Assembly (NCBI GenBank): GCA_035530895.1 | Contig: DATKTW010000106.1 | Coordinates: 1 to 55,361 of the forward strand | Length of the DNA: 55,361 nt | Direction of reading: 5' to 3' | Source of the DNA: Candidatus Nanopelagicaceae bacterium | GTDB taxonomy: Archaea > Asgardarchaeota > Lokiarchaeia > Sigyniarchaeales > SOKP01 | Shown here: positions 2,792 through 55,122 of the stretch, in pieces | How the letters are laid out: each line of letters opens with the position of its first letter | Numbering within the stretch: the first letter of the stretch is position 1 | Translations under genes and position numbers: made by a program | The notes under the pieces: generated by a model | Told to the model about the DNA's origin: nothing | Database searches by the model: none | What the model saw: only the letters and a program-made list of their open reading frames with translations

Positions 2792-2923
2792 GATATTTTA
2801 AAACTAATTTATAATATCCTTTTAATTTTAATATTTACTAAAGAATAATGGTTTAAAATATAAAAATAAGATTTAAGAAATATTACTCTTATTCCTTTAT
2901 TAAATACTTAACGAGATTATTAA

Positions 2924-4075
2924 ATGAATGGAATTTGGGATGTAAAAGCCGATGTAATAAAGAAAGGAGATAACCTTAGGGATGTGTCATCTCTTATCGA
3001 TAAAACTCTGAAAGACGAAATGGGTTTTATTCATTACTTCTTTAGTAAAGTTAATTTTAATAATCCTTGGTACACCATACCAGAAGACGATTTCAAATTA
3101 TTTGAAACCTTTATTGAAGGTGGATCTAGAGCGTATCCTTCAGATGGTAGCATCCCCTGTGATATAGTGGCGAGTGAAACGAGAAAAGTTCTCAAGAAAA
3201 TTGAACTATGTTCGCAAGATCCTAATCACCATTATTGTGAAGATGCTCGGTTAGTATTAAAAAACGGGAAATTTTCGTCAGTCAGAGGCACGTTAAAACT
3301 CTATTTAGGCAAATATACCACCCGGGATTGGAGAAGAAAAAGATTTACTGATGATATCGATTTTTGGATGTTTCAGACTAATTTATTGGACTCTTCTTTA
3401 AAGGAGTGCAGTTTTGTAAAAAAAAAAGAAACAGGAGAATGGGAAAAAACCGTAGAATGGAATAAATTTGAAACTAAAGAAAATAGGCGTGAAACTCTTT
3501 TTGCTGCAAATAACCTTAATCAACTACTCGATTTTGGAGCGGGTAGCTATCTTGAAGGCTCAAGTTTAAAGGAGATTTTTGATAAAAAAATTAAAAGAGG
3601 TCACGATGTAGATTTAAGCGATATTATAAATGTAGCAATGGTGAACAATGGCGTTGATGGTATTCACGAAGATGAGTGGATAGATGCATGGAATTCTTTT
3701 GAACAGGCAGCTAATACGCGAAATACTAGAACCACATCTAATTTAATAAGTATTTGCCGCTATTCCTTTGCTATTGCAGACTATCTTGAAAAAGTCGGTG
3801 AGGCTATTAGAAAGTATAAAGGTCTTATTTTTGATAAATCTAAATATCCCGACGAGAAGATAAAATCACTCTGTAGAATCTCTACTCATTGGGAAAAATT
3901 TTATGATGCTAACGGAGTAGATGAAACAAGAAAGATGATTCATGATTTTTTCGATGAACAGGCAGAAGAGAAACCACTGCACGCACAAAACCTAACATTA
4001 TTTGCGAAAAATATTCTAAAATTACTTAATTCCAAATACGAATATCTTAAGGTTATATTCGAAATTGAGCATTAA
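2924..4075 (+). CDS. hypothetical protein, possible nucleotidyltransferase fold (AbiEii/DUF1814-like)
   Basis: 383-aa ORF. RFTDDIDFW and KRGHDVDLSDI resemble the two acidic motifs of AbiEii-type NTases. The resemblance is weak and judged by eye only. Confidence 0.5.
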   Translation: MNGIWDVKADVIKKGDNLRDVSSLIDKTLKDEMGFIHYFFSKVNFNNPWYTIPEDDFKLFETFIEGGSRAYPSDGSIPCDIVASETRKVLKKIELCSQDPNHHYCEDARLVLKNGKFSSVRGTLKLYLGKYTTRDWRRKRFTDDIDFWMFQTNLLDSSLKECSFVKKKETGEWEKTVEWNKFETKENRRETLFAANNLNQLLDFGAGSYLEGSSLKEIFDKKIKRGHDVDLSDIINVAMVNNGVDGIHEDEWIDAWNSFEQAANTRNTRTTSNLISICRYSFAIADYLEKVGEAIRKYKGLIFDKSKYPDEKIKSLCRISTHWEKFYDANGVDETRKMIHDFFDEQAEEKPLHAQNLTLFAKNILKLLNSKYEYLKVIFEIEH

Positions 4076-4283
4076 TTTTCAAATTATAATTTTTTTTTTA
4101 AAAATTTGGGTTTAAATTTTTCAATCATGACCCAATTTAAGATATTTGTTGCACTATTTCGTGAAACTGAACTTTCACGTACTTTAATATATACCTTCAT
4201 ATTAGCTCGATATAGTTCTCTGTATTACCCAAACTACTTTTAAAAATGAGTTTAAAAAAATCTTTCAGTCAAAAGAATTTCTG

Positions 4284-5531
4284 TTAATCACTCAATTCTT
4301 CACTCGAAGGTTCAATTTCATTAGAAAAGCGATCCTTTGCTACGCTATGAAGTAACCAAAATCCAATAATAGAGATCAGACATAGAATTCCAGCTAAATA
4401 CCATACCCAATTCGGTCCAATATAAACCGTGACTAAACCAGCAGCTAAAACTCCAAATAAGGTTGGAATCGCCCAGTGGTAGCCATACACTGCCATATAT
4501 CGCCCTCGTTTATCTTCAGGGGCAAGATATGCAACTGCAGCTTGTGAGACTGGTATCACAATCATCTCCCCCACTGTTAGGATACCCATGGCTACGAAAA
4601 ACAGGTATATTTCGGAGATAAAGCCATACATCCCAAAGCCAATCATATAAAGTAAGGTACCAAAAGCCATCATTTTCATGGGTGCATACTTTGAAATCCT
4701 TTTGGTTATCCAGAATTGAAATAATACTACCATCAACGCATTCATGCTTAACAACAAACCAAAACCCGCTATTGGGAACCCATATACCGTCAGCAGAAAT
4801 ACCGATAACGTACTATTCATTTGCATGTAAACTAACACCGTTATAGCAGACACAGCAAGAAACATTATATAAACTGAATCTTTTAAAACCTCTTTATATC
4901 CTATGAGGGTTTTTATAACTGATTCTTCTGGTTTGTCATCTTGTTTTTCCGGTTTCGTTTCTGGAATGACAATGAATACAATTAAAGCGGTAATTAAGCT
5001 ACTCACAGCGTCCCCAATAAATAACAACATATAGGATTGGCTTGCTAAAAATCCACCAAGCATAGGGCCAATTGTAGCTGAAAGATTTACAGCTACCCGT
5101 AATAATCCAAATCCCTCTGCCTGTTTATCCTTTGGAAGTAAATCTACTACCATTGCTTGTCGTGCTGGACCTCCCAAATCGCCTAAAACTCCTAAAAATG
5201 CTGCTATTATGAAAAAAATATTTAGATCATCAACTAGTCCCATCAAGATACTTCCTATACCGCTTGAAATTAAACCTAAAAGAAGCATCGAGCGACGACC
5301 ATATTTATCAGCTAACGCTCCTCCTATCGTACTACCAATTATACTTCCACCCGAAAACACTGAAAATAAAATTCCTACTTGAATCATCCCTACACCAAAA
5401 TGTTCTATAAGATACACTGAAAAAAAGGGAAATAATAAAAAACTTCCTAACCTATCAATATATGTGGCGAGGATTAACACTTTAAATGTCCCGGGATATT
5501 CTTTATATGAATGTTTAAATTTTGCGAACAT
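4284..5531 (-). CDS. MFS transporter
   Basis: 415 aa with about 12 hydrophobic segments. The GALADKYGRR loop after TM2 matches the MFS signature. Confidence 0.8.
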   Translation of the reverse strand: MFAKFKHSYKEYPGTFKVLILATYIDRLGSFLLFPFFSVYLIEHFGVGMIQVGILFSVFSGGSIIGSTIGGALADKYGRRSMLLLGLISSGIGSILMGLVDDLNIFFIIAAFLGVLGDLGGPARQAMVVDLLPKDKQAEGFGLLRVAVNLSATIGPMLGGFLASQSYMLLFIGDAVSSLITALIVFIVIPETKPEKQDDKPEESVIKTLIGYKEVLKDSVYIMFLAVSAITVLVYMQMNSTLSVFLLTVYGFPIAGFGLLLSMNALMVVLFQFWITKRISKYAPMKMMAFGTLLYMIGFGMYGFISEIYLFFVAMGILTVGEMIVIPVSQAAVAYLAPEDKRGRYMAVYGYHWAIPTLFGVLAAGLVTVYIGPNWVWYLAGILCLISIIGFWLLHSVAKDRFSNEIEPSSEELSD

Positions 5532-7323: not shown

Positions 7324-8793
7324 TCAGCTTTTCTTGAATTCTTTGAATAAACTTCTCACTTTTAAGAAAGAATTGAGAACTGTTAAAAATCTTCTAGGGT
7401 TCAAAAGAAATAACAATCCTCGAGTTTTAATTAGACGATAACCTATATCTTTCAAATTATTAACATATTTTAATTCTCTAAAAGAGAAATATAAGAGATC
7501 ATATAATTGTTTTGGACTTAATTGATGAGTTCTAATAACCGGATAAAAAACTGTATATTTAGACCAATCTTTAGATATTACTAATCCTTGCTCATCCAGT
7601 TCTTTAAAAGTATCGCTTCCGGGAAAAGGAGTTAATAACACAAAACTCACTATATCTACATCCACAGTTTTCATAAATTGAATTTCTTTAATAACTTCTT
7701 CTTCTGTTTCTTTTAAATCAATCCCAATTATCAAATTCCCAATTACAATTATATTATTTTCATGTAAAATTTTAAGCCCTTCAATTACTTTTTTAAATTC
7801 AAATCCCTTTCTCACTTGTTTAAGAGATTCTTCATTTACACTTTCAATCCCTATAAAAACGACCCAAAATCCTGCTTTTCTCATCTTTTTTACCATTTGA
7901 GGTGCGTTTATGATAGAATCGACTCTTATCTGCGCAAAAAATTTAAAATCATTAATTTCTTTTTTTTGTTTACATTCAATTATTTTATCGCACAACTTTT
8001 CAATTCTTGTAGTACTCACAGTTAGATTATCATCTACAAAAAAAATATCTGTAATTTTTCTATTCTGTGAGATCATCTTTAATTCTTTTATTATTTTTTC
8101 AACAGAACGTGGTCTCCATAAATTTTTATTGAAAACATGAGTAGTACAAAATTTACATGTATAAGGACAACCTCTAGAGGTTTCCACCGTTTCTAATCTT
8201 ACTGTAAACATTTTATATTTATTATTTTTTGTGAGTTCTCTTGCGGGAAATCTAATGTTTTCAAAATCTTTTATTAATGGTCTATCAGGATTATGAATTA
8301 CTTTCCCATTAGATTTATACGAAATCCCCTTTACACTTTTAGGTGTACCCTTAATGATTAATTCTCTAAATGTTAACTCTCCTTCACCCCTTACTAGTAT
8401 ATCAACTTCATTAAGATTTATTGTTGAATCTGGTTCGAATGTAGGGTGTCTCCCACCAAATACTACAGTACAATTTGGATTAACTTCTTTTACAATTTTT
8501 GCAATATTATTTGAGTTCTTTAATGCGGCAGATACAAAAACTGAAATACCAACAATATCTGGATTAAATTTTTCAATTTTTTTCCTAATCTGACTAAATG
8601 TTAAGTTTTTCACTTTTGTATCAAGGATTTCTACATTTACATTTAAATCAGTTAAATAGCTAGCTATATAAGTCAGATTAATTGGAGGAAAATCCATATT
8701 ATAATAGTCCCAGCCAGTGGTTCTATAATTTGGTTTAATTAATAATACTTTTTTCCAAGTAAAATCATGATTTTTTGAAATTTGATAATCCAT
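7324..8793 (-). CDS. B12-binding-domain radical SAM protein
   Basis: N-terminal Rossmann-like B12-binding region (VGISV...VFGGRHPT). The radical SAM cluster motif is ETSRGCPYTCKFC (CxxxCxxC). Confidence 0.85.
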   Translation of the reverse strand: MDYQISKNHDFTWKKVLLIKPNYRTTGWDYYNMDFPPINLTYIASYLTDLNVNVEILDTKVKNLTFSQIRKKIEKFNPDIVGISVFVSAALKNSNNIAKIVKEVNPNCTVVFGGRHPTFEPDSTINLNEVDILVRGEGELTFRELIIKGTPKSVKGISYKSNGKVIHNPDRPLIKDFENIRFPARELTKNNKYKMFTVRLETVETSRGCPYTCKFCTTHVFNKNLWRPRSVEKIIKELKMISQNRKITDIFFVDDNLTVSTTRIEKLCDKIIECKQKKEINDFKFFAQIRVDSIINAPQMVKKMRKAGFWVVFIGIESVNEESLKQVRKGFEFKKVIEGLKILHENNIIVIGNLIIGIDLKETEEEVIKEIQFMKTVDVDIVSFVLLTPFPGSDTFKELDEQGLVISKDWSKYTVFYPVIRTHQLSPKQLYDLLYFSFRELKYVNNLKDIGYRLIKTRGLLFLLNPRRFLTVLNSFLKVRSLFKEFKKS

Positions 8794-8797
8794 TTCT

Positions 8798-10339
8798 TTA
8801 GATCCTATAGTTTTTTATAGCATTTTTTAGATCTTTCATATGGTTTAAATTTCCTGTTTTTATTTGTTTTACATCTTTCTTTTTTAATCCACCTAAATTA
8901 TGTATAACAATTTTTTTCCATTTAAAATATGAACTAAATGCTCGATAAAATCTAAAAGGATTGATAATATAGAAAATTCCTCTTGATCTAACAGTTCTAC
9001 GGCATAAATAATATTTATTTCTCGAATTTCCTCCATAATAGCCAATTGAATAAAAACCAAGAAACAGTAGTTTTTTAAGAATTTCTGGGCTAAGATTAGG
9101 GGTTTTTATCACGGGGTTAAGCCAATTAAATTTACTATATTCTTCTGTTAAAAGTAGACCTTTTTCTTTAATTTCATCGTAAAATTTAGTTGATGGGAAT
9201 GGAGTTAACAATGTAAAACTTGGTAAGTCTAAGCTTAACTCTCTTGTTTTATTAATTGTTATAAGAACATCATCTACAGAGTCGTTTAGGTTAGCTCCGA
9301 TAATAACATTTCCCATTACTATTATATCGTTTTCATGTAAAACCTTTATACCCTCTTTAATTTGATTTGTATTACACCCCTTAGCCACTGCTTTGAGTCC
9401 TTTGTCATCAGTTGCTTCGACGCCTACAAGAACAAGCCAAAAACCTGCTTCAGCCATTAACTTAACTACTTTAGGGTGTCTCGCCATCGAATCTAATCGT
9501 CCTTGAAAGAAAAAAAATAAATTTTTTCGTATTCTTCCCATTCTTTTGCCTTTTATAATTTCAAAGCATAATCTTCCAATACGTTTCATATTAACAAGAA
9601 AATTATCATCTACAACAAAAATATCACTAATTTTTTTATTTTTAGAAATTATTTCTAATTCATTTATAACATTTTCAACTGATCTAGATCTCCATGTTTG
9701 ATTATAGACCACATTAGTACTACAGAATTTGCATGCTTGTGGGCACCCACGAGAAGTCTCAATTGCGTCAATATTCATATTAAATATTTTGTATTTATAA
9801 TTTCCTACCAAATGGCGAGACGGAGGCCTTAACTCATCCAAGTTTTTTAAAAATGGTCTATCCGGATTATGTATTAATTTTCCATTCATTTTATAGGATA
9901 GACCACATATATTTAGTGGAGACCCCTTTTCAATTAATTCACGGAAAGTAAATTCACCCTCACCTCTAACCAAAATATCTATCCATGGAGAAGATAAAGT
10001 TTGCTCAATAGCTAATGTTGGATGCCACCCCCCAATAACAGTTGTTGAGCCATATAATTTAGCAATTTTTGCATGTTGTAAAACAGTATCAATGGCACTT
10101 GTAACTGGAACTGTTAATCCTACTAAATCAGGCTGATAATTTTCAATTTCCTTCTTAACTTGAGAAAAATTTAATTTAGCAGCTTTTGAATCTAATATTC
10201 TCACTTCTACCAGATCTTCTACATAAGCCGCAATATATTCAAAGGCTAGAGGCGGGAAGGCAGAATCATAAAAATCATAACCAGTTGTCTTGTAATTTGC
10301 AACTAATAATAAAATTTTCTTCCATTTCATAATTTTCAT
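8798..10339 (-). CDS. B12-binding-domain radical SAM protein (paralogue of 7324-8793)
   Basis: Same architecture, with cluster motif ETSRGCPQACKFC. It aligns with its neighbour along the whole length (LVRGEGEFTFRELIEKG / LVRGEGELTFRELIIKG). Confidence 0.85.
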   Translation of the reverse strand: MKIMKWKKILLLVANYKTTGYDFYDSAFPPLAFEYIAAYVEDLVEVRILDSKAAKLNFSQVKKEIENYQPDLVGLTVPVTSAIDTVLQHAKIAKLYGSTTVIGGWHPTLAIEQTLSSPWIDILVRGEGEFTFRELIEKGSPLNICGLSYKMNGKLIHNPDRPFLKNLDELRPPSRHLVGNYKYKIFNMNIDAIETSRGCPQACKFCSTNVVYNQTWRSRSVENVINELEIISKNKKISDIFVVDDNFLVNMKRIGRLCFEIIKGKRMGRIRKNLFFFFQGRLDSMARHPKVVKLMAEAGFWLVLVGVEATDDKGLKAVAKGCNTNQIKEGIKVLHENDIIVMGNVIIGANLNDSVDDVLITINKTRELSLDLPSFTLLTPFPSTKFYDEIKEKGLLLTEEYSKFNWLNPVIKTPNLSPEILKKLLFLGFYSIGYYGGNSRNKYYLCRRTVRSRGIFYIINPFRFYRAFSSYFKWKKIVIHNLGGLKKKDVKQIKTGNLNHMKDLKNAIKNYRI

Positions 10340-12522: not shown

Positions 12523-13107
12523 TTGACGGATAATGGTAAAATAGAAATTACCTTTCACGGTCGAGGAGGACAAACCGCTATAACTGCTAGTCAACTTCTA
12601 GCTCAATTGGCTTATGAAGAAAGTTTTAAAGACGCAATTGCGATACCTATTATTGGAGCAGAGAGGAGAGGGGCACCTATCCAAGCATTTACTAAGTTAT
12701 CAAGGAACAAAACGATAAAAACTTACGATAGTGTAATAAATCCAGATTACATGTTAATTTTTGACCCCTCACTATTAGATATTCCTAGAGTTTTGGAGAC
12801 GATAAAAAGTGGAGTCACATTATTAATTAATACAAAAAATCCGATTGATACTTGTGAATTTCCCGAAAACATAAAAATTTATATTGTTGATGCTACAGGA
12901 ATCTGTATAAAATTAGGATTTATGCATTCGAGTGGACCCATTTTGAACATTCCAATGCTGGGGGCATTTGGCCAATTAACTGGCTTCTATAATTTAGACA
13001 CTATGAAAAAAGTGATCTATAGCGAATATGGAGAAGCTAGGGGTAAGAAAAATTTAGAAGTTGCTGTCGAAGCTTACAATAGTGTTAAGGAGGTTGAATT
13101 TGAATGA
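12523..13107 (+). CDS. porG: 2-oxoacid (pyruvate):ferredoxin oxidoreductase gamma subunit
   Basis: 194 aa with HGRGGQ...AERRGAP, typical of the gamma subunit. It is the first gene of a G-D-A-B order operon. Confidence 0.85.
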   Translation: MTDNGKIEITFHGRGGQTAITASQLLAQLAYEESFKDAIAIPIIGAERRGAPIQAFTKLSRNKTIKTYDSVINPDYMLIFDPSLLDIPRVLETIKSGVTLLINTKNPIDTCEFPENIKIYIVDATGICIKLGFMHSSGPILNIPMLGAFGQLTGFYNLDTMKKVIYSEYGEARGKKNLEVAVEAYNSVKEVEFE

Positions 13108-13442
13108 ATAAGGTGAAATGGAAGAATATATGCGAAGACAAAGATAAGCGACCTGAAGTTCAAGAATATAAAAATTGGAAAGAACTACCTCCAATCCCAA
13201 TATCCTTTCCTATTAAAGGAAGTATAGGAAACACAGGAGATTGGAGAACGTTTAAACCTGTTGTAGATCGGGATACTTGTACTAAATGTGGTATTTGCTG
13301 GATGTATTGCCCCGAAGGTACAATAATCAGAAATGAAGAAGGAGAATTTGAAGTTGATTATAAATATTGCAAGGGTTGTGGTATATGCGCTAAAGAATGC
13401 CCCACAAAAAGTATAGAAATGGTTAGAGAGAGTGAAGTTTAA
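13104..13442 (+). CDS. porD: 2-oxoacid:ferredoxin oxidoreductase delta subunit (2x[4Fe-4S])
   Basis: CTKCGICWMYCP and CKGCGICAKECP cluster motifs. Overlaps porG by 4 nt. Confidence 0.85.
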   Translation: MNKVKWKNICEDKDKRPEVQEYKNWKELPPIPISFPIKGSIGNTGDWRTFKPVVDRDTCTKCGICWMYCPEGTIIRNEEGEFEVDYKYCKGCGICAKECPTKSIEMVRESEV

Positions 13443-13443
13443 T

Positions 13444-14700
13444 ATGGTTAAAGCACAAGAAGATTTTACACAGAAAAGAGAAACTAAGATAATAAAGGGT
13501 AATGTAGCAGCAGCCTACGCCGCGAAATCTGCACGAGTCCAAGTGATAAGTGCTTATCCCATTACACCACAAACAACTGTAGTAGAAAAATTATCAGAGT
13601 TCGCAGATAACGGTGAGATGCCGGGAACTCAATATATTAACGTTGAATCAGAACACTCCGTAATGGCATCGATTATTGGTGCAAGTACCGCAGGGACTCG
13701 TACTTTCACTGCTACATCTGGACAAGGATTATTTTATATGTATGAGATGGTCCATTGGGCAGCAGGTGCGCGTCTACCTATAGTTACTACGATTGCTTCA
13801 AGAGCTCCTGCTCCTCCGTGGAATATTTGGGCAGACTTCACAGATGTAATTAGTTGTAGAGATACTGGTTGGATGATTTCATTTGCTTCAGGGCACCAAG
13901 AAATTTATGATGATATATTAATGTCATATAAAATTAGCGAAGATTACGATATTTTATTACCTAAATTTGTAGCTTATGGGGGATTTACTCTATCTCATAC
14001 ATCTAAGCCTGTAACCATCGAGGATCAAGATGAAGTGGATGATTTTTTACCACCACTTCCAGATGAGAGAGGATGGCCCCATATTTTTCTCGATCCTGAA
14101 AGACCAATGATGCACGGGAATCTAATCATGCCATCTGGTTTTTACAATGAATTTAGATTAAAAATTCATTATACTCATACTATAGCAAAGCAAAAAATCA
14201 AGGATGTTGCTGCAGAATTTGAGAAAAAGTTTGGTAGATCTTATGGAAATGGATTAATTGAAGAATATAAAATGAAAGATGCGGAAGTTGCTATACTTAA
14301 TTATGGTGAACTTGCCATGCAGATGGAAGATGCGGTTGATGAACTTAGGATTGAAGGATATAAAGTGGGATGTGTAAAATTAAGATATTTCCGACCGTTT
14401 CCAGTCGAAGATATAATACAAATTGCTAATAAAGTTAAGGTTCTTGGCGTAGCAGACAGAGCTACAGCGTTTGGATCTCCGACTGGAGGGCCCGTAAGTA
14501 GTGAAGTAAAAGCAGCTCTATATGGTTCTGGAGTAACTACAAAAGTTTTACCAATTGTAATGGGTTTAGGTGGTAGAGAAGTTGGATTAGAACAACAGAA
14601 AAATCAATTAAAAGTATTGACTAAATTAAATGAAACTGGAGAGTTTCCAAAAGATATGATTGAAGGAACTTTCTGGGATGGATTATTGGAGGTCGATTAA
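13444..14700 (+). CDS. porA: 2-oxoacid:ferredoxin oxidoreductase alpha subunit
   Basis: GNVAAAYAA...YPITPQT...ESEHS motifs. The ATG at 13444 is preferred over the overlapping GTG at 13432. Confidence 0.85.
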   Translation: MVKAQEDFTQKRETKIIKGNVAAAYAAKSARVQVISAYPITPQTTVVEKLSEFADNGEMPGTQYINVESEHSVMASIIGASTAGTRTFTATSGQGLFYMYEMVHWAAGARLPIVTTIASRAPAPPWNIWADFTDVISCRDTGWMISFASGHQEIYDDILMSYKISEDYDILLPKFVAYGGFTLSHTSKPVTIEDQDEVDDFLPPLPDERGWPHIFLDPERPMMHGNLIMPSGFYNEFRLKIHYTHTIAKQKIKDVAAEFEKKFGRSYGNGLIEEYKMKDAEVAILNYGELAMQMEDAVDELRIEGYKVGCVKLRYFRPFPVEDIIQIANKVKVLGVADRATAFGSPTGGPVSSEVKAALYGSGVTTKVLPIVMGLGGREVGLEQQKNQLKVLTKLNETGEFPKDMIEGTFWDGLLEVD

Positions 14701-14702
14701 AA

Positions 14703-15641
14703 ATGGTATCCATAAAAGAAGCATTAGAAATTGGACAAGAAGAATATTTTTTAGCAGGGAATTCTACATGTGCAGGTTGCGGTCTTGAAATAGCTATAAG
14801 GTGGGCTATGAAAGCTCTTGGTCCAAATACATCCCTAGTTACGCCTGCTAGTTGTTTAAATGTTGTTGTTGGATTATGGCCTAAGACAGCACCAAATTTT
14901 CCGTTTATGAATATGGCATTTGCTGCAGGAGCTGCAGCAGCAACAGGAGTATCTGCAGCTTTTAAAGCAAAATCGTATAGATTTCCAGGCAAAGTATGGG
15001 AAAAAATGACATCTTTAGTTTTTGCTGGTGATGGAGGAACAACAGATATAGGGATTCAAGGTTTAAGTGGTGCAGCTGAAAGAAATTCTAATATCATTTA
15101 TTGTTGTTACGATAACGAAGCATACATGAATACTGGAATTCAACGATCATCTAGCACTCCACATGGAGCAATAACGACTACAACCACATTAGGAAAAGAA
15201 CGATATAAGAAAAATCTACCGCGAATAATGGCGGCACATGAAATCCCTTATGTTGCTACTTGTTCTGTAAGCGAACCTCTTGATATCTATGAGAAATTTA
15301 AAAAAGCAAAATCAATTGATGGGTGCAAGTACATTCATATTTTAGCTTCTTGTCCTCCTGGATGGGGCATTGCATCCGAAGATTCTATTGAAATACCTCG
15401 TTTAGCAGTTAAAACAGGTTCATGGATTTTATATGAAATCGAAAACGGTGTTTTAACATTATCAAAAAAAAGCAAACCACTATTAGATCCCTCAAAAAGA
15501 GCTCCACTAATTGAATACTTATCAAGACAAAAACGGTTCTCGAAAATATCTGAAAAAGATTTAATTGAACTTCAAGAAATACTCGATCTTCAGTGGTTTA
15601 AAATCGCTGATGAATTATCCTGCCAAGAAAATCATCAGTGA
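14703..15641 (+). CDS. porB: 2-oxoacid:ferredoxin oxidoreductase beta subunit (TPP-binding)
   Basis: CAGCG cluster ligands and the GDGGTxDIG...NEAYMNTG TPP-binding motif. Confidence 0.85.
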   Translation: MVSIKEALEIGQEEYFLAGNSTCAGCGLEIAIRWAMKALGPNTSLVTPASCLNVVVGLWPKTAPNFPFMNMAFAAGAAAATGVSAAFKAKSYRFPGKVWEKMTSLVFAGDGGTTDIGIQGLSGAAERNSNIIYCCYDNEAYMNTGIQRSSSTPHGAITTTTTLGKERYKKNLPRIMAAHEIPYVATCSVSEPLDIYEKFKKAKSIDGCKYIHILASCPPGWGIASEDSIEIPRLAVKTGSWILYEIENGVLTLSKKSKPLLDPSKRAPLIEYLSRQKRFSKISEKDLIELQEILDLQWFKIADELSCQENHQ

Positions 15642-26677: not shown

Positions 26678-27871
26678 TTAAGTTCTCAATTCAAATTTGT
26701 CTTTAATTCCTAAGTTAGTTAGTAAAGTTTGCATTTCACTGATATCTGGCTCTGAACCTACGGGTAACCCTAATTCTTGTCTCCTATGTTCGATAGCTGG
26801 CTGAGAAGGTATAGCTTTCGCACTGTCAAAAATTGTTTTGGCTTGTTTAACAATAAAGTCTGGTCCTTTACCCAGAGCAATACTCTGGTTCTTCAAAAAT
26901 GTGAATAAATCTGTTAGTTTGATATCTTGAGGACATACTTCATCACACGTATGACATGTTGTACAACCCCAGATTACTATATTGTCTCCTTTTAAGAGCA
27001 AATCTTTATACCCTAAAAGAGTGGCTAAGATATTCCTTCTTGGGTTATAGTTTCCCTGTGTAACATTGGAAACAGGACATTCAGATGTACAAATTCCACA
27101 TTGCAAACATGGATAAAGCGAAGGGTTTTGCTTTAATAAATTTATTGCCCACTTTCTATCCTTACTTGAGACGCCATCCGAACTTACATCGTCCCTAGAA
27201 CTTTTACGATATACGTAAGGGTCACTTGTTGATCGAAACTTTCGAATCAACTTGTGATAAAACCATCCGATAAACGCAATACCAAAGAAAAAGTAGTATA
27301 AGCCAAGCATGTATAACGAACTTGCCGACGTGAACGATATTATTGAGTGGAAAAAAATGAGAACCAATCCTGCCATGGAAACATTATGGAGGATTTTATT
27401 GATGCTATATCTATATCCCTTTTTAAATGCGGTCGCTCTAAGTTTTCTGATTGCTTTATGCTTCACTAGACTATTTGACATGAAGATTTTTGCCAGTACC
27501 ATCACAATAACGATAGAAGCCCATCCAAAGGTTCCTGTACTTAATTGAATAGGGTCAAGGCTTCCTCCTATGCGCAATAATGGAAAATGGAGAGAACCGA
27601 GAATTAATGCAATAACAGCCGTCCACATGTGGAAATTAAGTAACCAATCCAAACTAAAATTTGTTTCTATAACTTTTATCTTTGTCATGATGATGATGTT
27701 AAAACTCATCCAAATAAAAGAGAAAATGCCAAATAAACTTCCAATTCTATGAATTATATCATAAGATCCTAGATAAGTATATGGTTCTTCAATCAAGTAG
27801 ACTATTGAAGCAATTATAGGAAAAATTGCATATATCAGTAACAAGTAAATCTTATTTGTTTTAGTTTCCAT
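26678..27871 (-). CDS. fusion protein: ferric-reductase-type (NOX/FRD-like) bis-heme membrane domain + HdrC-like 2x[4Fe-4S] domain
   Basis: The N-terminal half has about six TM segments and two His pairs spaced 13 and 12 residues apart (HMWTAVIALILGSLH; HNVSMAGLVLIFFH). The C-terminal half has CLQCGICTSECP and CTTCHTCDEVCP, with HdrC-like flanks. Confidence 0.7.
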   Translation of the reverse strand: METKTNKIYLLLIYAIFPIIASIVYLIEEPYTYLGSYDIIHRIGSLFGIFSFIWMSFNIIIMTKIKVIETNFSLDWLLNFHMWTAVIALILGSLHFPLLRIGGSLDPIQLSTGTFGWASIVIVMVLAKIFMSNSLVKHKAIRKLRATAFKKGYRYSINKILHNVSMAGLVLIFFHSIISFTSASSLYMLGLYYFFFGIAFIGWFYHKLIRKFRSTSDPYVYRKSSRDDVSSDGVSSKDRKWAINLLKQNPSLYPCLQCGICTSECPVSNVTQGNYNPRRNILATLLGYKDLLLKGDNIVIWGCTTCHTCDEVCPQDIKLTDLFTFLKNQSIALGKGPDFIVKQAKTIFDSAKAIPSQPAIEHRRQELGLPVGSEPDISEMQTLLTNLGIKDKFELRT

Positions 27872-28126: not shown

Positions 28127-28549
28127 CTAACTCCAAGCAACCTTATTGATAAAAATCGACCACTCAAGCAAGATAAGTCCCATATCTTGCGTATGGGCTA
28201 TTATGTATTCTCCTTCTTTCGTAACGGACCCAACTATATTGCCTTTTCCTCCAACGATATTTTTTGCCGCTAGTTGTATCTCATCGTTTTTTAAAATGGC
28301 ATATCTATAACTCTGGAACATTAAAGCAGGTTCATTTTCTTTCCACGCTTTTAAGATGGCTTTCGCTTCTTCATCAGATAATTGGAATTCTTCAGATTTA
28401 AAAAGGATTTCACTTTCAGGACTCAACACGAAAATCTCTTCCATACCGTCATATTCCCTTAATTCTTCTACTAAATAATTAAACCGTTGTAGTTCCATAT
28501 CTCCACCATAATTTTCTAATATTGTATTTAATGAATCATAAAACCACAA
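28127..28549 (-). CDS. profilin-like protein
   Basis: 140 aa. N-terminal W-x2-Y-x3-L pattern (MWFYDSLNTIL). Core YRYAILKNDEIQLAAKN..GGKGNIVGSVTKEGEYIIAHT parallels the profilin segment xKYxxLRxDxxxIxGKKGxxGxxxxKT. TTG start. Confidence 0.6.
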   Translation of the reverse strand: MWFYDSLNTILENYGGDMELQRFNYLVEELREYDGMEEIFVLSPESEILFKSEEFQLSDEEAKAILKAWKENEPALMFQSYRYAILKNDEIQLAAKNIVGGKGNIVGSVTKEGEYIIAHTQDMGLILLEWSIFINKVAWS

Positions 28550-31070: not shown

Positions 31071-32024
31071 TTATAAATATTGGAATATTACTTCAAAATC
31101 AGAGAAATCAAAAGGTTTTAAAATGTAACCATCAGCATTACTTTCTTCGAGATGCTTTTCTACTTCTGAACCTGGTATAGCAGTTAACAAATAAACCGAA
31201 ATGTTTTGATGCTCTTTACTTGATTTAATCTGTTTGCAGATATCATAACCACTATAATCAGGTAAAATAATATCAAGCAATACCAACTTAGGTGGGTTAT
31301 TTGCTAGCTCTTCCAATCCTTTTGTTCCACTTACTACCCCCTTACAGGAAAAACCTTTGCTTTCAAAATAGCTTGTTAATAAACGAATAGTAGCTAAATC
31401 ATCTTCAATTAATAATATATCGTATTGAAGAGTTTCTGTTTTTATATTGTCCAGAATGTTGATAATTTTCTTCTCTAAAAGTAGAGATTGATTAAATATA
31501 TTTTGAATGGTATTAAAAACACTTTCGTCCATTTCATCACGATAATTTTCAATCAATAGCTGAGAAAATCCTTTGATTGACGTTAACGGTTCCTTTAGAG
31601 CATGCGATATGTTTGTGAGAGTTTGATTGTTTATTTTATGCAAATCTTCATTGATTAGAGTGGATTCTTGCTTAATAAAATAGTTAACACTCTCCCGTAT
31701 AAGTTTGGAAATGGTGTTATATTTATTTTTATGAGTTTTTATAAACTTGCTCCACTCTTCTTTGGTTTTGTCAGTTACATACAAGGAAATGCGCTCCTTT
31801 TCTCTGTCGTATATTTTTTCTCCTTTAAGCCATTTCATAAAACCTTCTGTTATGTTTCCACGCCATTTAGCATACTTATCCGTTGTGTCCTCATACTCCC
31901 TCATTAGTTTTTTCGCTTGTTCGCTATTCAAATCCAGATTATTTATTTCTTCGTCAGTCATATTTGGACTTGTGTGATTTTCCTTACCATTAGAATTACT
32001 ATCGTTCTTTTTTTCGTTAGGCAT
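31071..32024 (-). CDS. RHH-like domain + HisKA (H-box) + receiver domain protein, no HATPase domain
   Basis: - H-box ISHALKEPLTSIKGFSQLL.
- Complete REC domain (LIEDD, VLLDIILPD, LLTA, ILKPF) directly after the dimerisation helices.
- N-terminal ERISLYVTDKTKEEWSKFI...ISKLIRESVNYFI looks like a ribbon-helix-helix. Confidence 0.7.
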   Translation of the reverse strand: MPNEKKNDSNSNGKENHTSPNMTDEEINNLDLNSEQAKKLMREYEDTTDKYAKWRGNITEGFMKWLKGEKIYDREKERISLYVTDKTKEEWSKFIKTHKNKYNTISKLIRESVNYFIKQESTLINEDLHKINNQTLTNISHALKEPLTSIKGFSQLLIENYRDEMDESVFNTIQNIFNQSLLLEKKIINILDNIKTETLQYDILLIEDDLATIRLLTSYFESKGFSCKGVVSGTKGLEELANNPPKLVLLDIILPDYSGYDICKQIKSSKEHQNISVYLLTAIPGSEVEKHLEESNADGYILKPFDFSDFEVIFQYL

Positions 32025-32275: not shown

Positions 32276-33184
32276 TTATTTCACTTTTCCATTTAAAATT
32301 TCAAAAATAACTCCAAAATCAGAAAAATTAAATGGTTTAAGAATGTATCCATCAGCGAGTGTCGCATTTAAACGTTTTTTTATTTCTGATGCGGATATCG
32401 CTGTTAAAAAGTAAACTGGTATCTTTTTGTAAGTATTATCAGTTTTTATAGTCTGACATATATCATACCCACTTAAATCAGGTAAAATTATGTCTAGCAA
32501 TATAACTTTTGGGACCATCCTTCTTAATTCCTCTAAACCCTTTGTCCCACTTACAACTCCCTTACAGATGTAATGTTTACTTTCAAAATAGCTTGTTATT
32601 AACCGGATTGTTGCCAAATCATCTTCAATTAATAAAATGTCGTAGGGAGTACCTTCAGGTTGAATATTGTCTAAGAAATTTTTTATAATGTTTTCTAGCA
32701 GATTACTCTGATCGAAAATATTTTTTATTGTTTCCTCAACATGCTCACTTAAGTTAGCTTTATATTCATCGCTTTCAAGAAGTAATTGGGAATAACCTTT
32801 AATAGATGTAAGGGGTTCTTTTAAGGCGTGAGAGATGTTGGATATGGTACTCGGGTTCAATTTAGACAGTTCATTTGAAACTCTACTCGAATCTTCTATA
32901 AATGACTTAACACTTTGTCTTATTAACTCTGAAAAACTAGGAAAGGACTCTTTGTTTTTATTTATAAATTTTTGCCATTCTCCTTTAATCTTATCGTCAA
33001 CATATAAAGATATTCTTTCCTTGTCTCGCGTATAAATTTTTTCGCCTTTTAACCATTTTTTAAAACCTTCAGTTATCGCTCCTCTCCAAACTGCGTACTT
33101 ATCGTTCTCTTCTTTGTATTTTTTCATGTATTGCTTTATTTTTTCGTCGTTAAGATTAATATTTTCTATTTCTTTTTCGCTCAT
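32276..33184 (-). CDS. RHH-like domain + HisKA (H-box) + receiver domain protein (paralogue of 31071-32024)
   Basis: Same architecture: ERISLYVDDKIKGEWQKFI...FSELIRQSVKSFI, ISHALKEPLTSIKGYSQLL, and REC with LIEDD / ILLDIILPD / ILKPF. Confidence 0.7.
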   Translation of the reverse strand: MSEKEIENINLNDEKIKQYMKKYKEENDKYAVWRGAITEGFKKWLKGEKIYTRDKERISLYVDDKIKGEWQKFINKNKESFPSFSELIRQSVKSFIEDSSRVSNELSKLNPSTISNISHALKEPLTSIKGYSQLLLESDEYKANLSEHVEETIKNIFDQSNLLENIIKNFLDNIQPEGTPYDILLIEDDLATIRLITSYFESKHYICKGVVSGTKGLEELRRMVPKVILLDIILPDLSGYDICQTIKTDNTYKKIPVYFLTAISASEIKKRLNATLADGYILKPFNFSDFGVIFEILNGKVK

Positions 33185-50235: not shown

Positions 50236-51381
50236 ATGGCAGAAGAAGAAAGTTTTTTAAACGCGAAAGCCTTGGTGGTTGATAACGGAACTGGAATCTC
50301 CAAGAATGGCTTCGCTGGTGAAGACCAACCTCGTTCTGTATTTCCAACTCTTATTGGCTATCCAAAATATGAATCGATAATGACTGATGTTGAGCATTAC
50401 ACTCGTGAATACTATATCGGAGAAGAAGCAATGCAATTAAAAGGTGTTCTTAAGTTAATGTTTCCCGTAGAACATGGTATTATCGAAGATTGGACCGCAA
50501 TGGAAAAGATTTGGCATTACACTTTTTATACAGACTTGAGAATCGATCCTAGCGAACACCCGGTTCTATTAACTGAAGCTCCATTAAACCCTAGACCAAA
50601 CCGAGAAAAAATGGCTGAAATTATGTTTGAAACCTTTAATGTTCCAGCCCTTTATGTAGCAATGCAAGCAGTTTTGTCGCTATATGCTTCTGGTCGTACA
50701 ACGGGATGCGTCATAGATATTGGGGATGGAGTCTCTCACGTAGTACCTATTTTCGAAGGCTTTGCTCTAAGTCATGCAATCCAAAGAATCGATCTTGCTG
50801 GCCGTGATATCACAACGTACCTACAAAGATTACTCCGACAAAAAGGATACTCCTTTACAACTTCTGCAGAGAAAGAAATTGTTAGAGATATCAAAGAAAA
50901 ACTCTGCTATGTAGCAATCGATCCAGAGAAAGAAATGATGCTTTCAAAGAAAGTTGCTGGAATGGAAAAAAGCTACATGCTTCCTGACGGAGAAACTATA
51001 AATGTAGGTGTCGAACGATTTTTAGCACCTGAATGCTTCTTCAATCCATCAGTAATCGGGAAAGAATTAGAACCTCTCGATGATGTAATTGTCGGTGCTA
51101 TTTCAGAATGTGATGTCGACCTTCGTAGAGACCTTTATGGCAATATTGTACTTTCTGGTGGTTCAACAATGTTCCCTGGAATCAAGGAAAGATTAACAAA
51201 AGAAATTAAAGAACAGATTCCAGAATCAGTTGATGTCAAGATTATAGCCCCTCCAGAACGTATGTATTCCGTATGGATTGGTGGTTCAATCTTAAGTTCC
51301 TTGAAAACATTCCACAGAATGTGGGTAACTAGAAGGGAATATAAAGAAATGGGACCACAAGTCATTCACAGATGCTTCTAA
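50236..51381 (+). CDS. actin homologue (lokiactin-like)
   Basis: 381 aa, colinear with eukaryotic actin. Matching segments: [88 protein letters not shown], and GGSTMFPG...[16 protein letters not shown]. Confidence 0.9.
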
Positions 51382-54006: not shown

Positions 54007-55122
54007 TTAAGGTCTTTTACCTTTTAATGTGGTTTCTGCTCGTTCAATTTTCTTTTTACTGAATTCTTTAACTTTTGCCAGTATTTCATCCTTTTTATTT
54101 GGTTTATTTAATTCTTTTGGCTCTTTGATATATCCTTTATTTATAGCGTTTTTATAGAGTTCTTCCCCAATCTTAGTTCGTATAATCGCTGTAGTTAATT
54201 TCTCTTCTGATCCGAGACCTCCAAAAGAGATATCTGCATATATATTGGAAAAATCAGGGCATGCAAAGCAAGCAGGTCGTCCAATTTCGTGTAAATCGGA
54301 AAAAGATATATGTAATACCTCATTATTTTTGAGATACAGGATAAGATCTTCCCTAATATTCATACTGTCAACATCCTCAAATGAAAACTTAAATTTCTCT
54401 TCAAGCATTTTTCTATCCTCATCGCTAAATGAAAAATTTAAATAACAGAATAAACCTAATGTGTATTTGACGATGTGTGCCGGAAGTATGCTTAATTCTT
54501 GCATTTTTCTAATTGAATTAATCTGACAAGGAGTTCCAACAATAGCTATATTTAACAAATCTGGACTCATAACTTTTTTCAAGGTAATATTGGTAGCAAT
54601 AAATGTATTATACTTTTCCAAACCAACAACTTGACTGGAAAGATCATAATGAGACCCAGCAGCTTCTATTAAATCTTCTTTCGTTGTAGCAAAAAATGGA
54701 ACTCTGTTAAATGGTCCTTTTCTTTTACAAACAATTGCTCCATCTATTAACTTATTTTCTAATAAATAGCTTAAAATCGCGGTAATAGCACCACCATCAG
54801 TAGCTTGTTTTCTAATTTCTTCAGAAGTAGCATGACACGAAGCAACTTTTATCTGATTTCCAATTGGAGCTTTATATTTAAATTTGGCATTTAATTGATC
54901 GTTTAAGACATGAGTTTGAGGACATACAAAATAACAAATACCACATTTAAGACAATTATCTTTATTTACATATTTTGGAGGTCCTGACTCTGACATCTCA
55001 ATAGCTTTTATTTCCCCAGCTGTACAAAAACTAACGCATCCCCCACACTCTCCACATAATCCTGGTTCATGAACTTCTTTTATTAAATCTTCAAATGATT
55101 TTGAACTTGCATTATCAATCAA
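54007..55122 (-). CDS. FrhB/FdhB-family (F420-type flavin-binding) oxidoreductase subunit with N-terminal 2x[4Fe-4S]
   Basis: CGECGGCVSFC and CLKCGICYFVCP motifs, then GGAITAILSYLLENKLIDGAIV and VGTPCQINSIRK, which are typical of FrhB_FdhB N/C domains. Confidence 0.75.
   Translation of the reverse strand: MIDNASSKSFEDLIKEVHEPGLCGECGGCVSFCTAGEIKAIEMSESGPPKYVNKDNCLKCGICYFVCPQTHVLNDQLNAKFKYKAPIGNQIKVASCHATSEEIRKQATDGGAITAILSYLLENKLIDGAIVCKRKGPFNRVPFFATTKEDLIEAAGSHYDLSSQVVGLEKYNTFIATNITLKKVMSPDLLNIAIVGTPCQINSIRKMQELSILPAHIVKYTLGLFCYLNFSFSDEDRKMLEEKFKFSFEDVDSMNIREDLILYLKNNEVLHISFSDLHEIGRPACFACPDFSNIYADISFGGLGSEEKLTTAIIRTKIGEELYKNAINKGYIKEPKELNKPNKKDEILAKVKEFSKKKIERAETTLKGKRP

Follow-up and report, generated by a model that had tools for sequence, protein, structure and literature searches.

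A ferric-reductase-type membrane domain fused to an HdrC-like iron–sulfur domain in Asgard archaea, a predicted transmembrane electron conduit

Results

Gene and domain layout of the fusion protein

The window analyzed here is a stretch of DNA of 55,361 nucleotides. On its reverse strand, an ORF at 26678-27871, which starts with ATG and has its stop codon within those coordinates, encodes a protein of 397 aa in which a membrane domain of the ferric reductase domain (FRD) type is followed by an HdrC-like domain. Homologues of this protein formed 134 clusters, almost all of them full-length. Current database labels of the fusion protein are only "4Fe-4S dicluster domain-containing protein" or "heterodisulfide reductase subunit C". 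The features of the gene are as follows.

26678..27871, reverse strand: whole gene of the FRD-HdrC fusion protein, 397 aa (ORF listing; stop codon 26678-26680)
27233..27871, reverse strand: ferric-reductase-type (NOX-like) six-TM membrane domain, aa 1-213 (hydropathy, AF2 model, Foldseek, family profile)
27572..27640, reverse strand: TM3, in which H81 near the inner and H95 near the outer face are the predicted heme ligands, separated by 13 residues (conservation; alignment with DUOX1 and SpNOX)
27338..27394, reverse strand: TM5, in which H162 near the inner and H175 near the outer face are the predicted heme ligands, separated by 12 residues (both unchanged throughout the family and in 38/38 NOX-type relatives)
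27122..27232, reverse strand: cytoplasmic linker from TM6 to the Fe-S domain, aa 214-250 (alignment; low pLDDT in the full-length model)
26681..27121, reverse strand: HdrC-like domain including the C-terminal arm, aa 251-397 (5odc_C, family profile, TIGR03290, Foldseek)
27074..27109, reverse strand: first predicted [4Fe-4S] motif, C255-x2-C258-x2-C261-x3-C265-P (all four Cys invariant)
26930..26965, reverse strand: second predicted [4Fe-4S] motif, C303-x2-C306-x2-C309-x3-C313-P (all four Cys invariant)

The sequence-only reading of this locus had described two His pairs spaced by 13 and 12 residues and a C-terminal HdrC-like domain with two CxxCxxCxxxCP motifs. Both His peptides were found, HMWTAVIALILGSLH in TM3 (aa 81-95, nt 27587-27631, 13 residues between the His) and HNVSMAGLVLIFFH in TM5 (aa 162-175, nt 27347-27388, 12 residues between the His), and so were both Cys motifs, CLQCGICTSECP (aa 255-266, nt 27074-27109) and CTTCHTCDEVCP (aa 303-314, nt 26930-26965). 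In the alignment, the linker (aa 214-250) carried a conserved stretch, SDPYxYRKxSWD, and D217, P218, and R222 were invariant. Two 151-nt metatranscriptome contigs mapped to 26968-27296, a weak indication that the fusion gene is transcribed.

Hydropathy analysis gave six hydrophobic segments, of which the third and the fifth carry the His pairs, and K+R residues numbered 19 on the predicted cytoplasmic segments versus 1 on the outer loops. Because of this charge bias, H81 and H162 are placed toward the inner side of the membrane and H95 and H175 toward its outer side. The pairs thus lie inside TM3 and TM5, each with a His close to either face of the membrane, which agrees with the earlier placement of the pairs on separate helices. 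These results support a predicted N-in/C-in membrane module of six helices, and the location of the HdrC-like domain has to be cytoplasmic.

Homology of the membrane half to ferric reductase domains

The window protein matched Pfam PF01794 (Ferric_reduct) over profile positions 1-119 of 121 with 16.8 bits (E=0.007), below the gathering score of 28. Direct scores lay at 16.8-18.4 bits against the same gathering score, and across the family 9/23 members were matched, with a best E of 1.2e-5. Since the direct match was sub-threshold, the homology of the membrane half was tested by transitive searches with a profile built from the membrane half of family members only. This profile matched 296 representatives, and beyond the family it reached proteins of ~445 aa (E 1e-28 to 1e-9) with the NOX-type domain set Ferric_reduct, FAD_binding_8, and NAD_binding_1/6. 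Two of these relatives, P0127 (1.3e-27 with the family-only profile) and P0128 (9.3e-27), themselves scored 36.8 and 32.9 bits on PF01794, above the gathering score. A profile match to the ferric reductase family was therefore obtained transitively through these two proteins, although not directly.

All four His were aligned and conserved in 38/38 NOX-type relatives and were conserved across an 83-sequence alignment. The TM3 pair aligned with H1130/H1144 of DUOX1 and with TM3 of SpNOX. The heme ligands of SpNOX are H69/H83 and H129/H142, and their 14- and 13-residue offsets are those of the window protein (PMC11564096). Judged from these profiles and alignments, the homology of the membrane half to FRD proteins is secure.

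The domain had previously been assigned to the NOX/FRE/STEAP type. The FRD homology stood, but the closest proteins were prokaryotic and SpNOX-type rather than eukaryotic NOX, FRE, or STEAP: a combined profile matched bacterial SpNOX at 1e-53, versus 3e-27 to 1e-18 for DUOX1, NOX5, and NOX2. Some of the nearest NOX-type relatives occurred on contigs that look archaeal and others on contigs that look bacterial. Direct descent of eukaryotic NOX from the Asgard FRD was rejected as unsupported, as bacterial SpNOX scored far above the three eukaryotic proteins. The window protein had no FAD_binding or NAD_binding match and ended in the HdrC-like domain instead; without a FAD/NADPH dehydrogenase domain, it is a member of the FRD superfamily but not a NOX. 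Pfam TRP (PF06011) also matched 13/23 members (best E 1.5e-7; window protein 22.9 bits versus a cut-off of 28.5). This match covered only ~98/426 profile positions, over TM4-TM6, other TRP features were absent, and it most likely reflects hydrophobic-helix similarity.

An AF2 model of the membrane domain, built on the 83-sequence alignment, had a pLDDT of 91.5 and six long helices. The best Foldseek match of this model was SpNOX 8qt6 (TM 0.59, rmsd 4.3), and NOX5, DUOX1, STEAP1, and cytochrome b561 were further top matches, with other convincing folds absent. For SpNOX, NOX5, DUOX1, and STEAP1, the probability was 0.97-1.00 (best chain of each), but the E-values were weak (~0.05-0.5), and b561 (4o6y) and Dcytb (5zle) scored about as well as NOX. 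NarI/HdrE was rejected as the membrane fold, since matches to NarI, HdrE, or the membrane part of QmoC were absent from the Pfam, PDB-sequence, and Foldseek searches. The full-length AF2 model had a pLDDT of 68.9, with the Fe-S half at ~50 and the linker also poor, and its Foldseek result was blurry.

The C-terminal domain is HdrC-like

The PDB HdrC chain 5odc_C was matched at 1e-19, with aa 251-390 aligned to chain residues 30-170 of 184. The family profile matched HdrC at 4.5e-28, and the alignment continued through the C-terminal arm. In Foldseek, the full-length model matched 5odc_C at 1.7e-3. QmoC was matched at 2e-13, only over its HdrC-like N-terminal part. By sequence, the assignment of an HdrC-like domain with both motifs and a helical C-terminal extension is solid. 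TIGR03290 was matched at 2.6e-22, with 79.3 bits against an equivalog cut-off of 160, so that the domain classifies as HdrC-like and not as an HdrC equivalog. With the HdrC of soluble HdrABC (5odc chain C), it shares the pair of CxxCxxCxxxCP motifs and a helical arm at the C-terminus, with ~32% identity over ~140-170 residues; unlike that subunit, it is fused to a membrane heme domain, and hdrB and hdrA are not adjacent in the window.

Conservation of the fusion family

Among the proteins found, full-length family members occurred only in Asgard MAGs, at 44-100% identity. In an alignment of 28 such members, H95, H162, H175, and all eight Cys were invariant, and H81 was kept in at least 90%, the sole exception seen being P0108, which has Ser. 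Orthologues thus keep the His residues on which the earlier assignment was built, and such a His/Cys pattern is not expected by chance. In the C-terminal arm, Q357, R363, R364, L369, and P370 were invariant whether or not a clade has a linked HdrB gene. The family has its own invariant outer-face residues, E28, E29, and H41, which were not conserved in NOX-type relatives. Position 99 is Leu in the window protein and varied across the family.

Gene neighborhoods and candidate partners

The earlier statement that no HdrB or HdrA gene is adjacent was correct for this window: tblastn with queries from a relative detected no HdrA, HdrB, or MvhD in the whole 55 kb, and an HdrC query matched only the fusion gene. 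Pfam scans of 20 other large window ORFs found no heme-biosynthesis or CCG (non-cubane cluster) genes. No CCG gene was found near the fusion gene in the window or in its close relatives L001 and L002, where the neighbors were a profilin-like gene, DUF2110, and a proteasome/exosome operon, nor was one found near it in L004 and L005.

A different arrangement was seen in a divergent clade (L003, L016, L017, and L061), where an HdrB-type gene with two CCG domains starts 0-95 nt after the stop codon of the fusion gene; the two genes are predicted to be translationally coupled. All ten CCG cysteines were visible in the HdrB-like sequence of L003. Ordinary Asgard hdrB genes lie behind a soluble hdrC whose stop codon overlaps their start codon, so the fusion gene occupies the hdrC slot of an hdrCB pair. 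The neighborhoods in this clade were rich in thiol and oxidative-stress genes, namely those for AhpC, a flavodiiron protein, a thioredoxin-like protein, glutaredoxin, a CoA-disulfide-reductase-like/rhodanese/TusA protein, and ferredoxin-thioredoxin reductase B. In L014, hdrC-hdrB-hdrA-mvhD lay ~300 nt downstream of the fusion gene. In Thor- and Hermodarchaeota, an FAD-oxidase/HdrD-like pair, consisting of an FAD_binding_4 oxidase and a Fer4_8+2xCCG protein, was found upstream, directly adjoining the fusion gene in L018 and ~2.6 kb away in L019.

A homology search for HdrB of the coupled type returned one tier at ≥57% identity, which was of the coupled type, and another at 45-51%, of which the two members checked both lay in ordinary soluble hdrC-hdrB operons; the search identified no dedicated unlinked HdrB partner for the window clade. 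The sequence-only reading had called the redox partner unknown. This holds for the window clade and no longer for relatives with adjoining HdrB-type or HdrD-type CCG genes.

Discussion

A predicted electron conduit with an HdrC-like input

We consider it likely that this gene encodes a single-chain transmembrane electron conduit, in which a NOX-type di-heme module is combined with an HdrC-like input that would be served by a CCG partner. By homology, H81 and H162 would hold an inner heme b, and H95 and H175 an outer heme b; both the heme and the cluster cofactors are predicted. The HdrC-like domain, with its two [4Fe-4S] cluster motifs, replaces the FAD/NADPH dehydrogenase of NOX enzymes, and its clusters would take over from FAD as the feeder of the inner heme. 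Electrons would then pass from the CCG partner through the two [4Fe-4S] clusters to the inner heme and on to the outer heme. That the cytoplasmic partner is a CCG protein is suggested by the gene neighborhoods of relatives, in which it may be an HdrB-type subunit (divergent clade) or an FAD-oxidase/HdrD-like pair (Thor- and Hermodarchaeota). For the window lineage, which has no CCG gene nearby, the partner is extrapolated. The whole assembly would resemble HdrDE, EMO, or QmoC as an Hdr-like complex bound to the membrane.

Outward flow would carry cytoplasmic reducing equivalents, derived from thiol/disulfide or 2-hydroxyacid chemistry, to an extracytoplasmic acceptor. The direction is the least certain part of the model. 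It is proposed by analogy, because, to our knowledge, all characterized FRD proteins move electrons from the cytoplasm to the outside.

Alternative explanations

Heme auxotrophy is predicted for a substantial part of the Asgardarchaeota (10.1101/2021.01.11.426183), which counts against the conduit model, and the lineage singled out for heme biosynthesis is Heimdallarchaeia, not Lokiarchaeia (10.1101/2024.07.04.601786). Frequent auxotrophy would suit a membrane half that is a mere anchor, a heme-less relic tethering the HdrC-like ferredoxin domain in heme-auxotrophic archaea, as would the loss of H81 in P0108. We regard this as very improbable: the near-complete retention of the four His over so wide a range of identity is hard to explain without a ligand role, and the fold and ligand spacing are the same as in heme-binding relatives. 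Assigning the membrane domain to cytochrome b561 instead of the FRDs is hardly credible, even though the Foldseek scores of 4o6y and 5zle were comparable to those of NOX, a fold resemblance common to FRDs. In b561, the helices TM2-TM5 each contribute a single heme-ligating His. Here that pattern was not found; conserved in-membrane His occurred only on TM3 and TM5, two on each with the 13/12 FRD spacing, Pfam b561 was unmatched where Ferric_reduct matched part of the family, and the significant sequence links all led to FRD-FAD-NAD proteins.

The remaining alternatives keep the architecture and concern the use of the electrons. If flow were inward, as it is in HdrDE or DsrMK, the heme module would be reduced by an external donor or by one dissolved in the membrane, and electrons would run through the HdrC clusters and an HdrB-type subunit to a cytoplasmic disulfide, which could serve energy conservation or the repair of oxidized thiols. 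The coupled HdrB-type genes of the divergent clade, the complete set of CCG cysteines in L003, and the many thiol and oxidative-stress genes nearby fit this direction, and so does the behavior of the closest functional analogues, HdrDE and EMO, which exchange electrons with a membrane carrier; EMO is able to run in either direction (10.64898/2026.08.18.745454). We nevertheless judge inward flow unlikely, though it is the strongest of the alternatives, given that no characterized FRD protein is known to work inward. Further, no quinone or methanophenazine site is evident in the fusion protein, a membrane electron carrier of Lokiarchaeia was not found in the literature examined, and the window lineage has no linked HdrB. 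A special case of outward flow is an oxygen-directed NOX-like enzyme, in which the outer heme would hand low-potential electrons from the Fe-S clusters to O2 or a different oxidant for detoxification or signaling in an anaerobe meeting traces of O2. The proximity of the membrane module to SpNOX-type NOX proteins and the oxidative-stress genes adjoining the divergent-clade gene are consistent with this role. Eukaryotic NOX enzymes have a His four residues after the outer TM3 ligand, and here that residue is the family-variable Leu99. Superoxide production would also be an odd strategy for a strict anaerobe, and the SpNOX authors themselves doubt that O2 is the physiological acceptor (PMC11564096), so we consider an oxygen-directed function improbable.

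Relation to known systems

SpNOX-type prokaryotic NADPH oxidases (8qt6) share with the fusion family the six-TM FRD and the TM3/TM5 His pairs with identical 13/12 spacing, and they are both its best structural match and its nearest sequence relatives outside the family. They differ in that the fusion family has the HdrC-like di-[4Fe-4S] domain wholly in place of the flavin/NADPH dehydrogenase. The membrane-bound Hdr-like complexes HdrDE, EMO/EtfD (9ojn), QmoC, and DsrMK follow the design predicted for the fusion family, in which a membrane module holding heme b is connected to cubane clusters of the HdrC type and, in relatives of the window protein, also to HdrB-type CCG domains. In these complexes, the membrane module is a five-TM cytochrome b of the NarI/HdrE type with quinone or methanophenazine as its partner, whereas the fusion family has a six-TM NOX-type FRD. 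EMO carries its membrane domain, then HdrC, and then HdrB in one chain (10.64898/2026.08.18.745454).

FRD proteins such as NOX, FRE, STEAP, and MsrQ are classic one-electron conduits across membranes. Like the conduit proposed here, MsrQ/YedZ and STEAP are FRD modules that pass electrons to non-O2 extracytoplasmic acceptors, and STEAP1 is among the fold matches; their inputs are FMN/quinone or an F420-type NADPH domain, some hold a single heme, and none is fed by Fe-S (PMC3591440). The catalogued FRD input modules comprise flavin/NADPH, FMN, Fer2, Rieske, DOMON, and others, with an HdrC-type di-cluster domain absent, and the same survey considered archaea to be without ancient FRDs (PMC3591440). 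A 2017 screen contained a single archaeal NOX (PMC5676040). Within the literature that could be searched, the combination of a NOX-type FRD with HdrC is undescribed. The architecture, together with the coupling to HdrB-type CCG proteins in some lineages, links NOX-type heme conduits with Hdr Fe-S chemistry.

Implications for Asgard archaea

Lokiarchaeia and other Asgard archaea are usually modeled as cytochrome-free fermenters and syntrophs. It is a tentative and rather doubtful extension of our model that they possess a heme-based transmembrane electron outlet, in which a NOX-type di-heme module fed by HdrC/HdrB-type Fe-S would deliver electrons to external acceptors or directly to syntrophic partners. 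Current schemes of lokiarchaeial energy metabolism contain Mvh-Hdr, hydrogenases, and an ATPase (10.1101/2024.07.04.601786); if the protein does hold heme and conducts electrons from one side of the membrane to the other, these schemes would need an added membrane redox component. It would then also be a concrete target that can be cloned, with which models of Asgard syntrophy could be tested for electron transfer to the cell exterior or between species. Were the outlet real, membrane-bound complexes resembling heterodisulfide reductase would gain a new class, and the lineage closest to eukaryotes would have a route of interspecies electron transfer that had not been considered before.

The FRD-HdrC gene and its family

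An ORF of 397 aa was located exactly at window positions 26678-27871 on the minus strand, as the sequence-only reading had placed it, and both His peptides that it quoted and both CxxCxxCxxxCP motifs were found at verified coordinates. The homology search returned 134 clusters, nearly all of ~390-417 aa and 44-100% identical to the window protein. The taxon-bearing source names among these clusters were all Asgard (Loki/Promethearchaeota, Hermod-, Hod-, and Thorarchaeota), and the closest relatives were named Lokiarchaeota or Promethearchaeota. The source databases call these proteins "4Fe-4S dicluster domain-containing protein" or "heterodisulfide reductase subunit C". Two peptide patterns, which very divergent members could escape, were run against a single genome for each GTDB species; full-length members occurred in Asgard MAGs only, and the bacterial loci matched the HdrC-like part only. 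Among 28 diverse members that were aligned, H95, H162, H175, and the eight cluster Cys residues showed no variation and H81 was kept in at least 90%, indicating that the architecture is more than chance. Expression evidence was limited to two short metatranscriptome contigs.

The sole exception seen at H81 was the relative P0108 (locus L003, 10001-11221; family alignment A1), whose HdrB gene is translationally coupled. It has Ser for this predicted inner-heme ligand and keeps the other three His residues; the protein may bind a single heme, or the Ser may stem from a sequencing error. Another member, P0121, has 534 aa, ~135 aa more than the others, and matches the membrane-domain profile in two stretches, which suggests an insertion or partial duplication within the ferric reductase domain (FRD).

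The membrane half is a prokaryotic-type FRD

The direct match of the window protein to PF01794 was weak (E = 0.007; 16.8 bits, gathering score 28) but covered profile positions 1-119 of 121, and 9 of 23 family members matched this profile (best E 1.2e-5). Against PDB sequences, the membrane-half profile gave one match, DUOX1 (E = 0.09); counting along this alignment places H81 and H95 at DUOX1 H1130 and H1144. Decisive evidence came from an exhaustive HMMER search of 1.84 billion representatives with the same family-only membrane-half profile, which yielded 296 matches at E ≤ 0.001. Beyond the family, these were mostly proteins of 440-455 aa aligned over their N-terminal ~220 residues (E 1e-28 to 1e-9), with the Pfam composition Ferric_reduct, FAD_binding_8, and NAD_binding_1/6, i.e., the NOX/FRE architecture; two individual proteins, P0127 (36.8 bits) and P0128 (32.9 bits), exceeded the PF01794 threshold. 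The four His residues were aligned and conserved in all 38 NOX-type relatives (local alignment). In an alignment of 83 sequences, H95, H162, and H175 were invariant and H81 nearly so, and the NOX-type rows carried the HPFS, GPYG, GGIGITP, and CGP motifs.

The AlphaFold2 model of residues 1-228 built from this 83-sequence alignment was confident (pLDDT 91.5, pTM 0.88) and contained six long helices. Its best Foldseek match was the Streptococcus pneumoniae NADPH oxidase (SpNOX; 8qt6; TM 0.59, rmsd 4.3 Å), and the other high-probability matches were only cytochrome b561, NOX5, DUOX1, Dcytb, and STEAP1, all with weak E-values (~0.05). In the SpNOX structure, H69/H129 bind the inner heme and H83/H142 the outer heme (PMC11564096), and these 14- and 13-residue offsets are identical to those of the window protein. 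The combined profile matched SpNOX at 1e-53 (5e-9 for the TM stretch alone), far better than it matched eukaryotic NOX proteins, indicating a membrane module of prokaryotic type. The family profile, the His conservation, the model, and the fold match thus support the ferric-reductase-type domain first read from the sequence; its broader NOX/FRE/STEAP label is narrowed to a prokaryotic, SpNOX-type FRD.

Weak matches to Pfam TRP (PF06011) were obtained for 13 of 23 members (best E 1.5e-7, alignment A2), spanning aa 118-215 (TM4-TM6); the window protein lies below the TRP gathering cut-off, and the matches were judged compositional. Classic FRD-FAD-NAD (NOX-type) proteins are encoded at L062 (6001-7359), L063, and L064. 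An archaeal-looking contig named Promethearchaeota carries such proteins, adjoining an intein-containing MCM, and other close members lie on bacterial-looking contigs, one beside a cytochrome b5-like gene.

Hydropathy gave six hydrophobic segments (~aa 8-27, 43-63, 78-100, 113-133, 160-178, and 187-206). Basic residues (K+R) total 19 across the N-terminus, loops 2-3 and 4-5, and the region after TM6, versus 1 across loops 1-2, 3-4, and 5-6, a strong positive-inside signal that indicates an N-in/C-in topology. This topology places H81 and H162 near the inner face, H95 and H175 near the outer face, and the Fe-S domain in the cytoplasm, where [4Fe-4S]-type clusters are assembled. In outer loop 1-2 (aa 28-42; window 27746-27790), alignment A1 shows E28, E29, and P30 as invariant or almost so and H41 as almost invariant. 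Conservation of E28, E29, and H41 is confined to the HdrC-fused family and does not extend to NOX-type relatives; speculatively, on the predicted outer face, these residues might form a site for an acceptor or a metal close to the outer heme.

The C-terminal half is HdrC-like

Residues 251-390 aligned at 1e-19 to the HdrC subunit from the HdrABC-Mvh complex of M. thermolithotrophicus (E = 4.5e-28 with the family profile; ~32% identity in the Foldseek alignment), in agreement with the HdrC-like, two-motif C-terminus originally proposed. HdrC (TIGR03290) ranked first in NCBIfam at 2.6e-22, below its equivalog cut-off, so the domain is HdrC-like rather than an orthodox HdrC; QmoC, with its HdrC-like N-terminus, ranked third. 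The alignment extends through the C-terminal arm, in which Q357, R363, R364, L369, and P370 are invariant in the family; in HdrABC, this arm of HdrC clasps HdrB. In the full-length AF2 model, the Fe-S half and the linker were poorly modelled.

Gene setting and candidate redox partners

The window comes from a Loki-type Asgard archaeon, has a G+C content of ~31%, and includes an archaeal proteasome-alpha/SBDS/Rrp4/Rrp41/Rrp42 operon and the following features.

26678-27871 (-), FRD-HdrC gene
28127-28549 (-), profilin-like gene immediately upstream, 140 aa (Pfam Profilin E = 0.0016, below threshold)
50236-51381 (+), eukaryote-like actin, 381 aa (Pfam Actin E = 8.8e-133)
31071-32024 (-) and 32276-33184 (-), tandem paralogues of ~300 aa with a common N-terminal KYAxWRGxITEGFxKWLKGEKIY region
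7324-8793 (-) and 8798-10339 (-), adjoining pair of B12-binding radical SAM genes
12523-15641 (+) and 54007-55122 (-), 2-oxoacid:ferredoxin oxidoreductase subunits (POR, POR_N/PFOR_II, TPP_enzyme_C) and an FrhB/FdhB-like Fe-S flavoprotein

The actin and the profilin-like gene mark the window as Asgard. At L001, the counterparts of the tandem paralogues match HisKA and Response_reg, an uncommon combination that lacks an evident sensor domain. The oxidoreductase and FrhB/FdhB-like genes represent low-potential electron sources or sinks in the same genome region, not adjoining the FRD-HdrC gene. The latter is solitary, with spacers of 255 and 264 nt on its two sides, and is flanked by the profilin-like gene and the proteasome-alpha/exosome operon, an arrangement shared by a 78%-identical relative. 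The pairing with the profilin-like gene is kept in L001 and L002, with no functional link apparent.

No homologue of HdrA, HdrB, or MvhD was found in the whole 55-kb window, which bears out the earlier statement that no HdrB or HdrA gene adjoins. The redox partner, then given as unknown, can be described further from relatives, which have neighbours with CCG domains (the non-cubane cluster domains of HdrB/HdrD-type proteins); the window lineage itself is without one. Members of the clade that diverges most (42-48% identity) are followed directly downstream by an HdrB-type gene (302-303 aa, two CCG domains) in L003, L016, L017, and L061; in L003 and L061, this gene overlaps or abuts the FRD-HdrC stop codon. 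Because ordinary Asgard hdrB genes trail soluble hdrC in this same manner, the fusion gene takes the hdrC slot of an hdrCB pair. Thiol and oxidative-stress genes abound in the wider neighbourhood of this HdrB-coupled clade. At L014 (61% identity), a full hdrC-hdrB-hdrA-mvhD cluster begins ~300 nt downstream. In the Thor-/Hermodarchaeota loci L018 and L019, a FAD_binding_4 oxidase and a Fer4_8+2xCCG (HdrD/GlcF-like) protein are encoded upstream, directly adjoining in L018. Neither L004 nor L005 has a CCG neighbour. A CCG-type partner is therefore a recurring, not universal, theme across the family loci, and proposing one for the window's own lineage is an extrapolation.

Just upstream of the L018 gene string, in a Thorarchaeota MAG, lies a gene pair (2887-4433, +) encoding a UbiA-family prenyltransferase (Pfam E = 4e-41) and a 186-aa multi-TM protein without a Pfam match; the UbiA protein may be a heme O synthase or, alternatively, a lipid/quinone enzyme.

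Proposed electron path and novelty

Sequence and model point to a predicted NOX-type di-heme TM module that forms one chain with a cytoplasmic HdrC-like domain predicted to hold two [4Fe-4S] clusters; these clusters would take over the role of FAD in supplying the inner heme with electrons. Electrons would pass from a CCG partner through two cubane clusters to the inner heme (H81/H162), the outer heme (H95/H175), and an outer-face acceptor. To our knowledge, characterised FRDs send electrons outward to extracytoplasmic acceptors, and by this analogy outward flow is favoured, with a likelihood near even. Its main rival is inward, HdrDE-like flow toward disulfide reduction. HdrDE, DsrMK, QmoC, and EMO/EtfD share the wiring logic of FRD-HdrC, but their membrane module is a five-TM, quinone-linked NarI/HdrE-type cytochrome b, whereas that of FRD-HdrC is a six-TM FRD. 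In the recently solved EMO/EtfD, a single chain carries a membrane heme domain and, after it, HdrC- and HdrB-like domains (10.64898/2026.08.18.745454). Heme supply is uncertain: many Asgardarchaeota are predicted heme auxotrophs (10.1101/2021.01.11.426183), and Heimdallarchaeia, not Lokiarchaeia, are the group for which heme biosynthesis has been stressed (10.1101/2024.07.04.601786).

A 2013 survey of FRD architectures (PMC3591440) listed FAD/NADPH, FMN, Fer2, Rieske, DOMON, peroxidase, EF-hand, SH3, and MFS partners; neither 4Fe-4S nor HdrC domains were among them, and archaea were inferred to be probably without ancient FRD copies. In 2017, a screen recovered a single archaeal NOX (PMC5676040). 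The NOX-type proteins on the Promethearchaeota-named contig contrast with this near absence of archaeal NOX from earlier surveys. Full-text literature searches found no description of an FRD-HdrC fusion. The original observation is confirmed, and its interpretation is supported in amended form, as a prokaryotic SpNOX-type FRD with CCG partners in relatives. Each half is already known, as is the general concept of wiring heme to HdrC; the combination of FRD and HdrC and its restriction to Asgard archaea are new.
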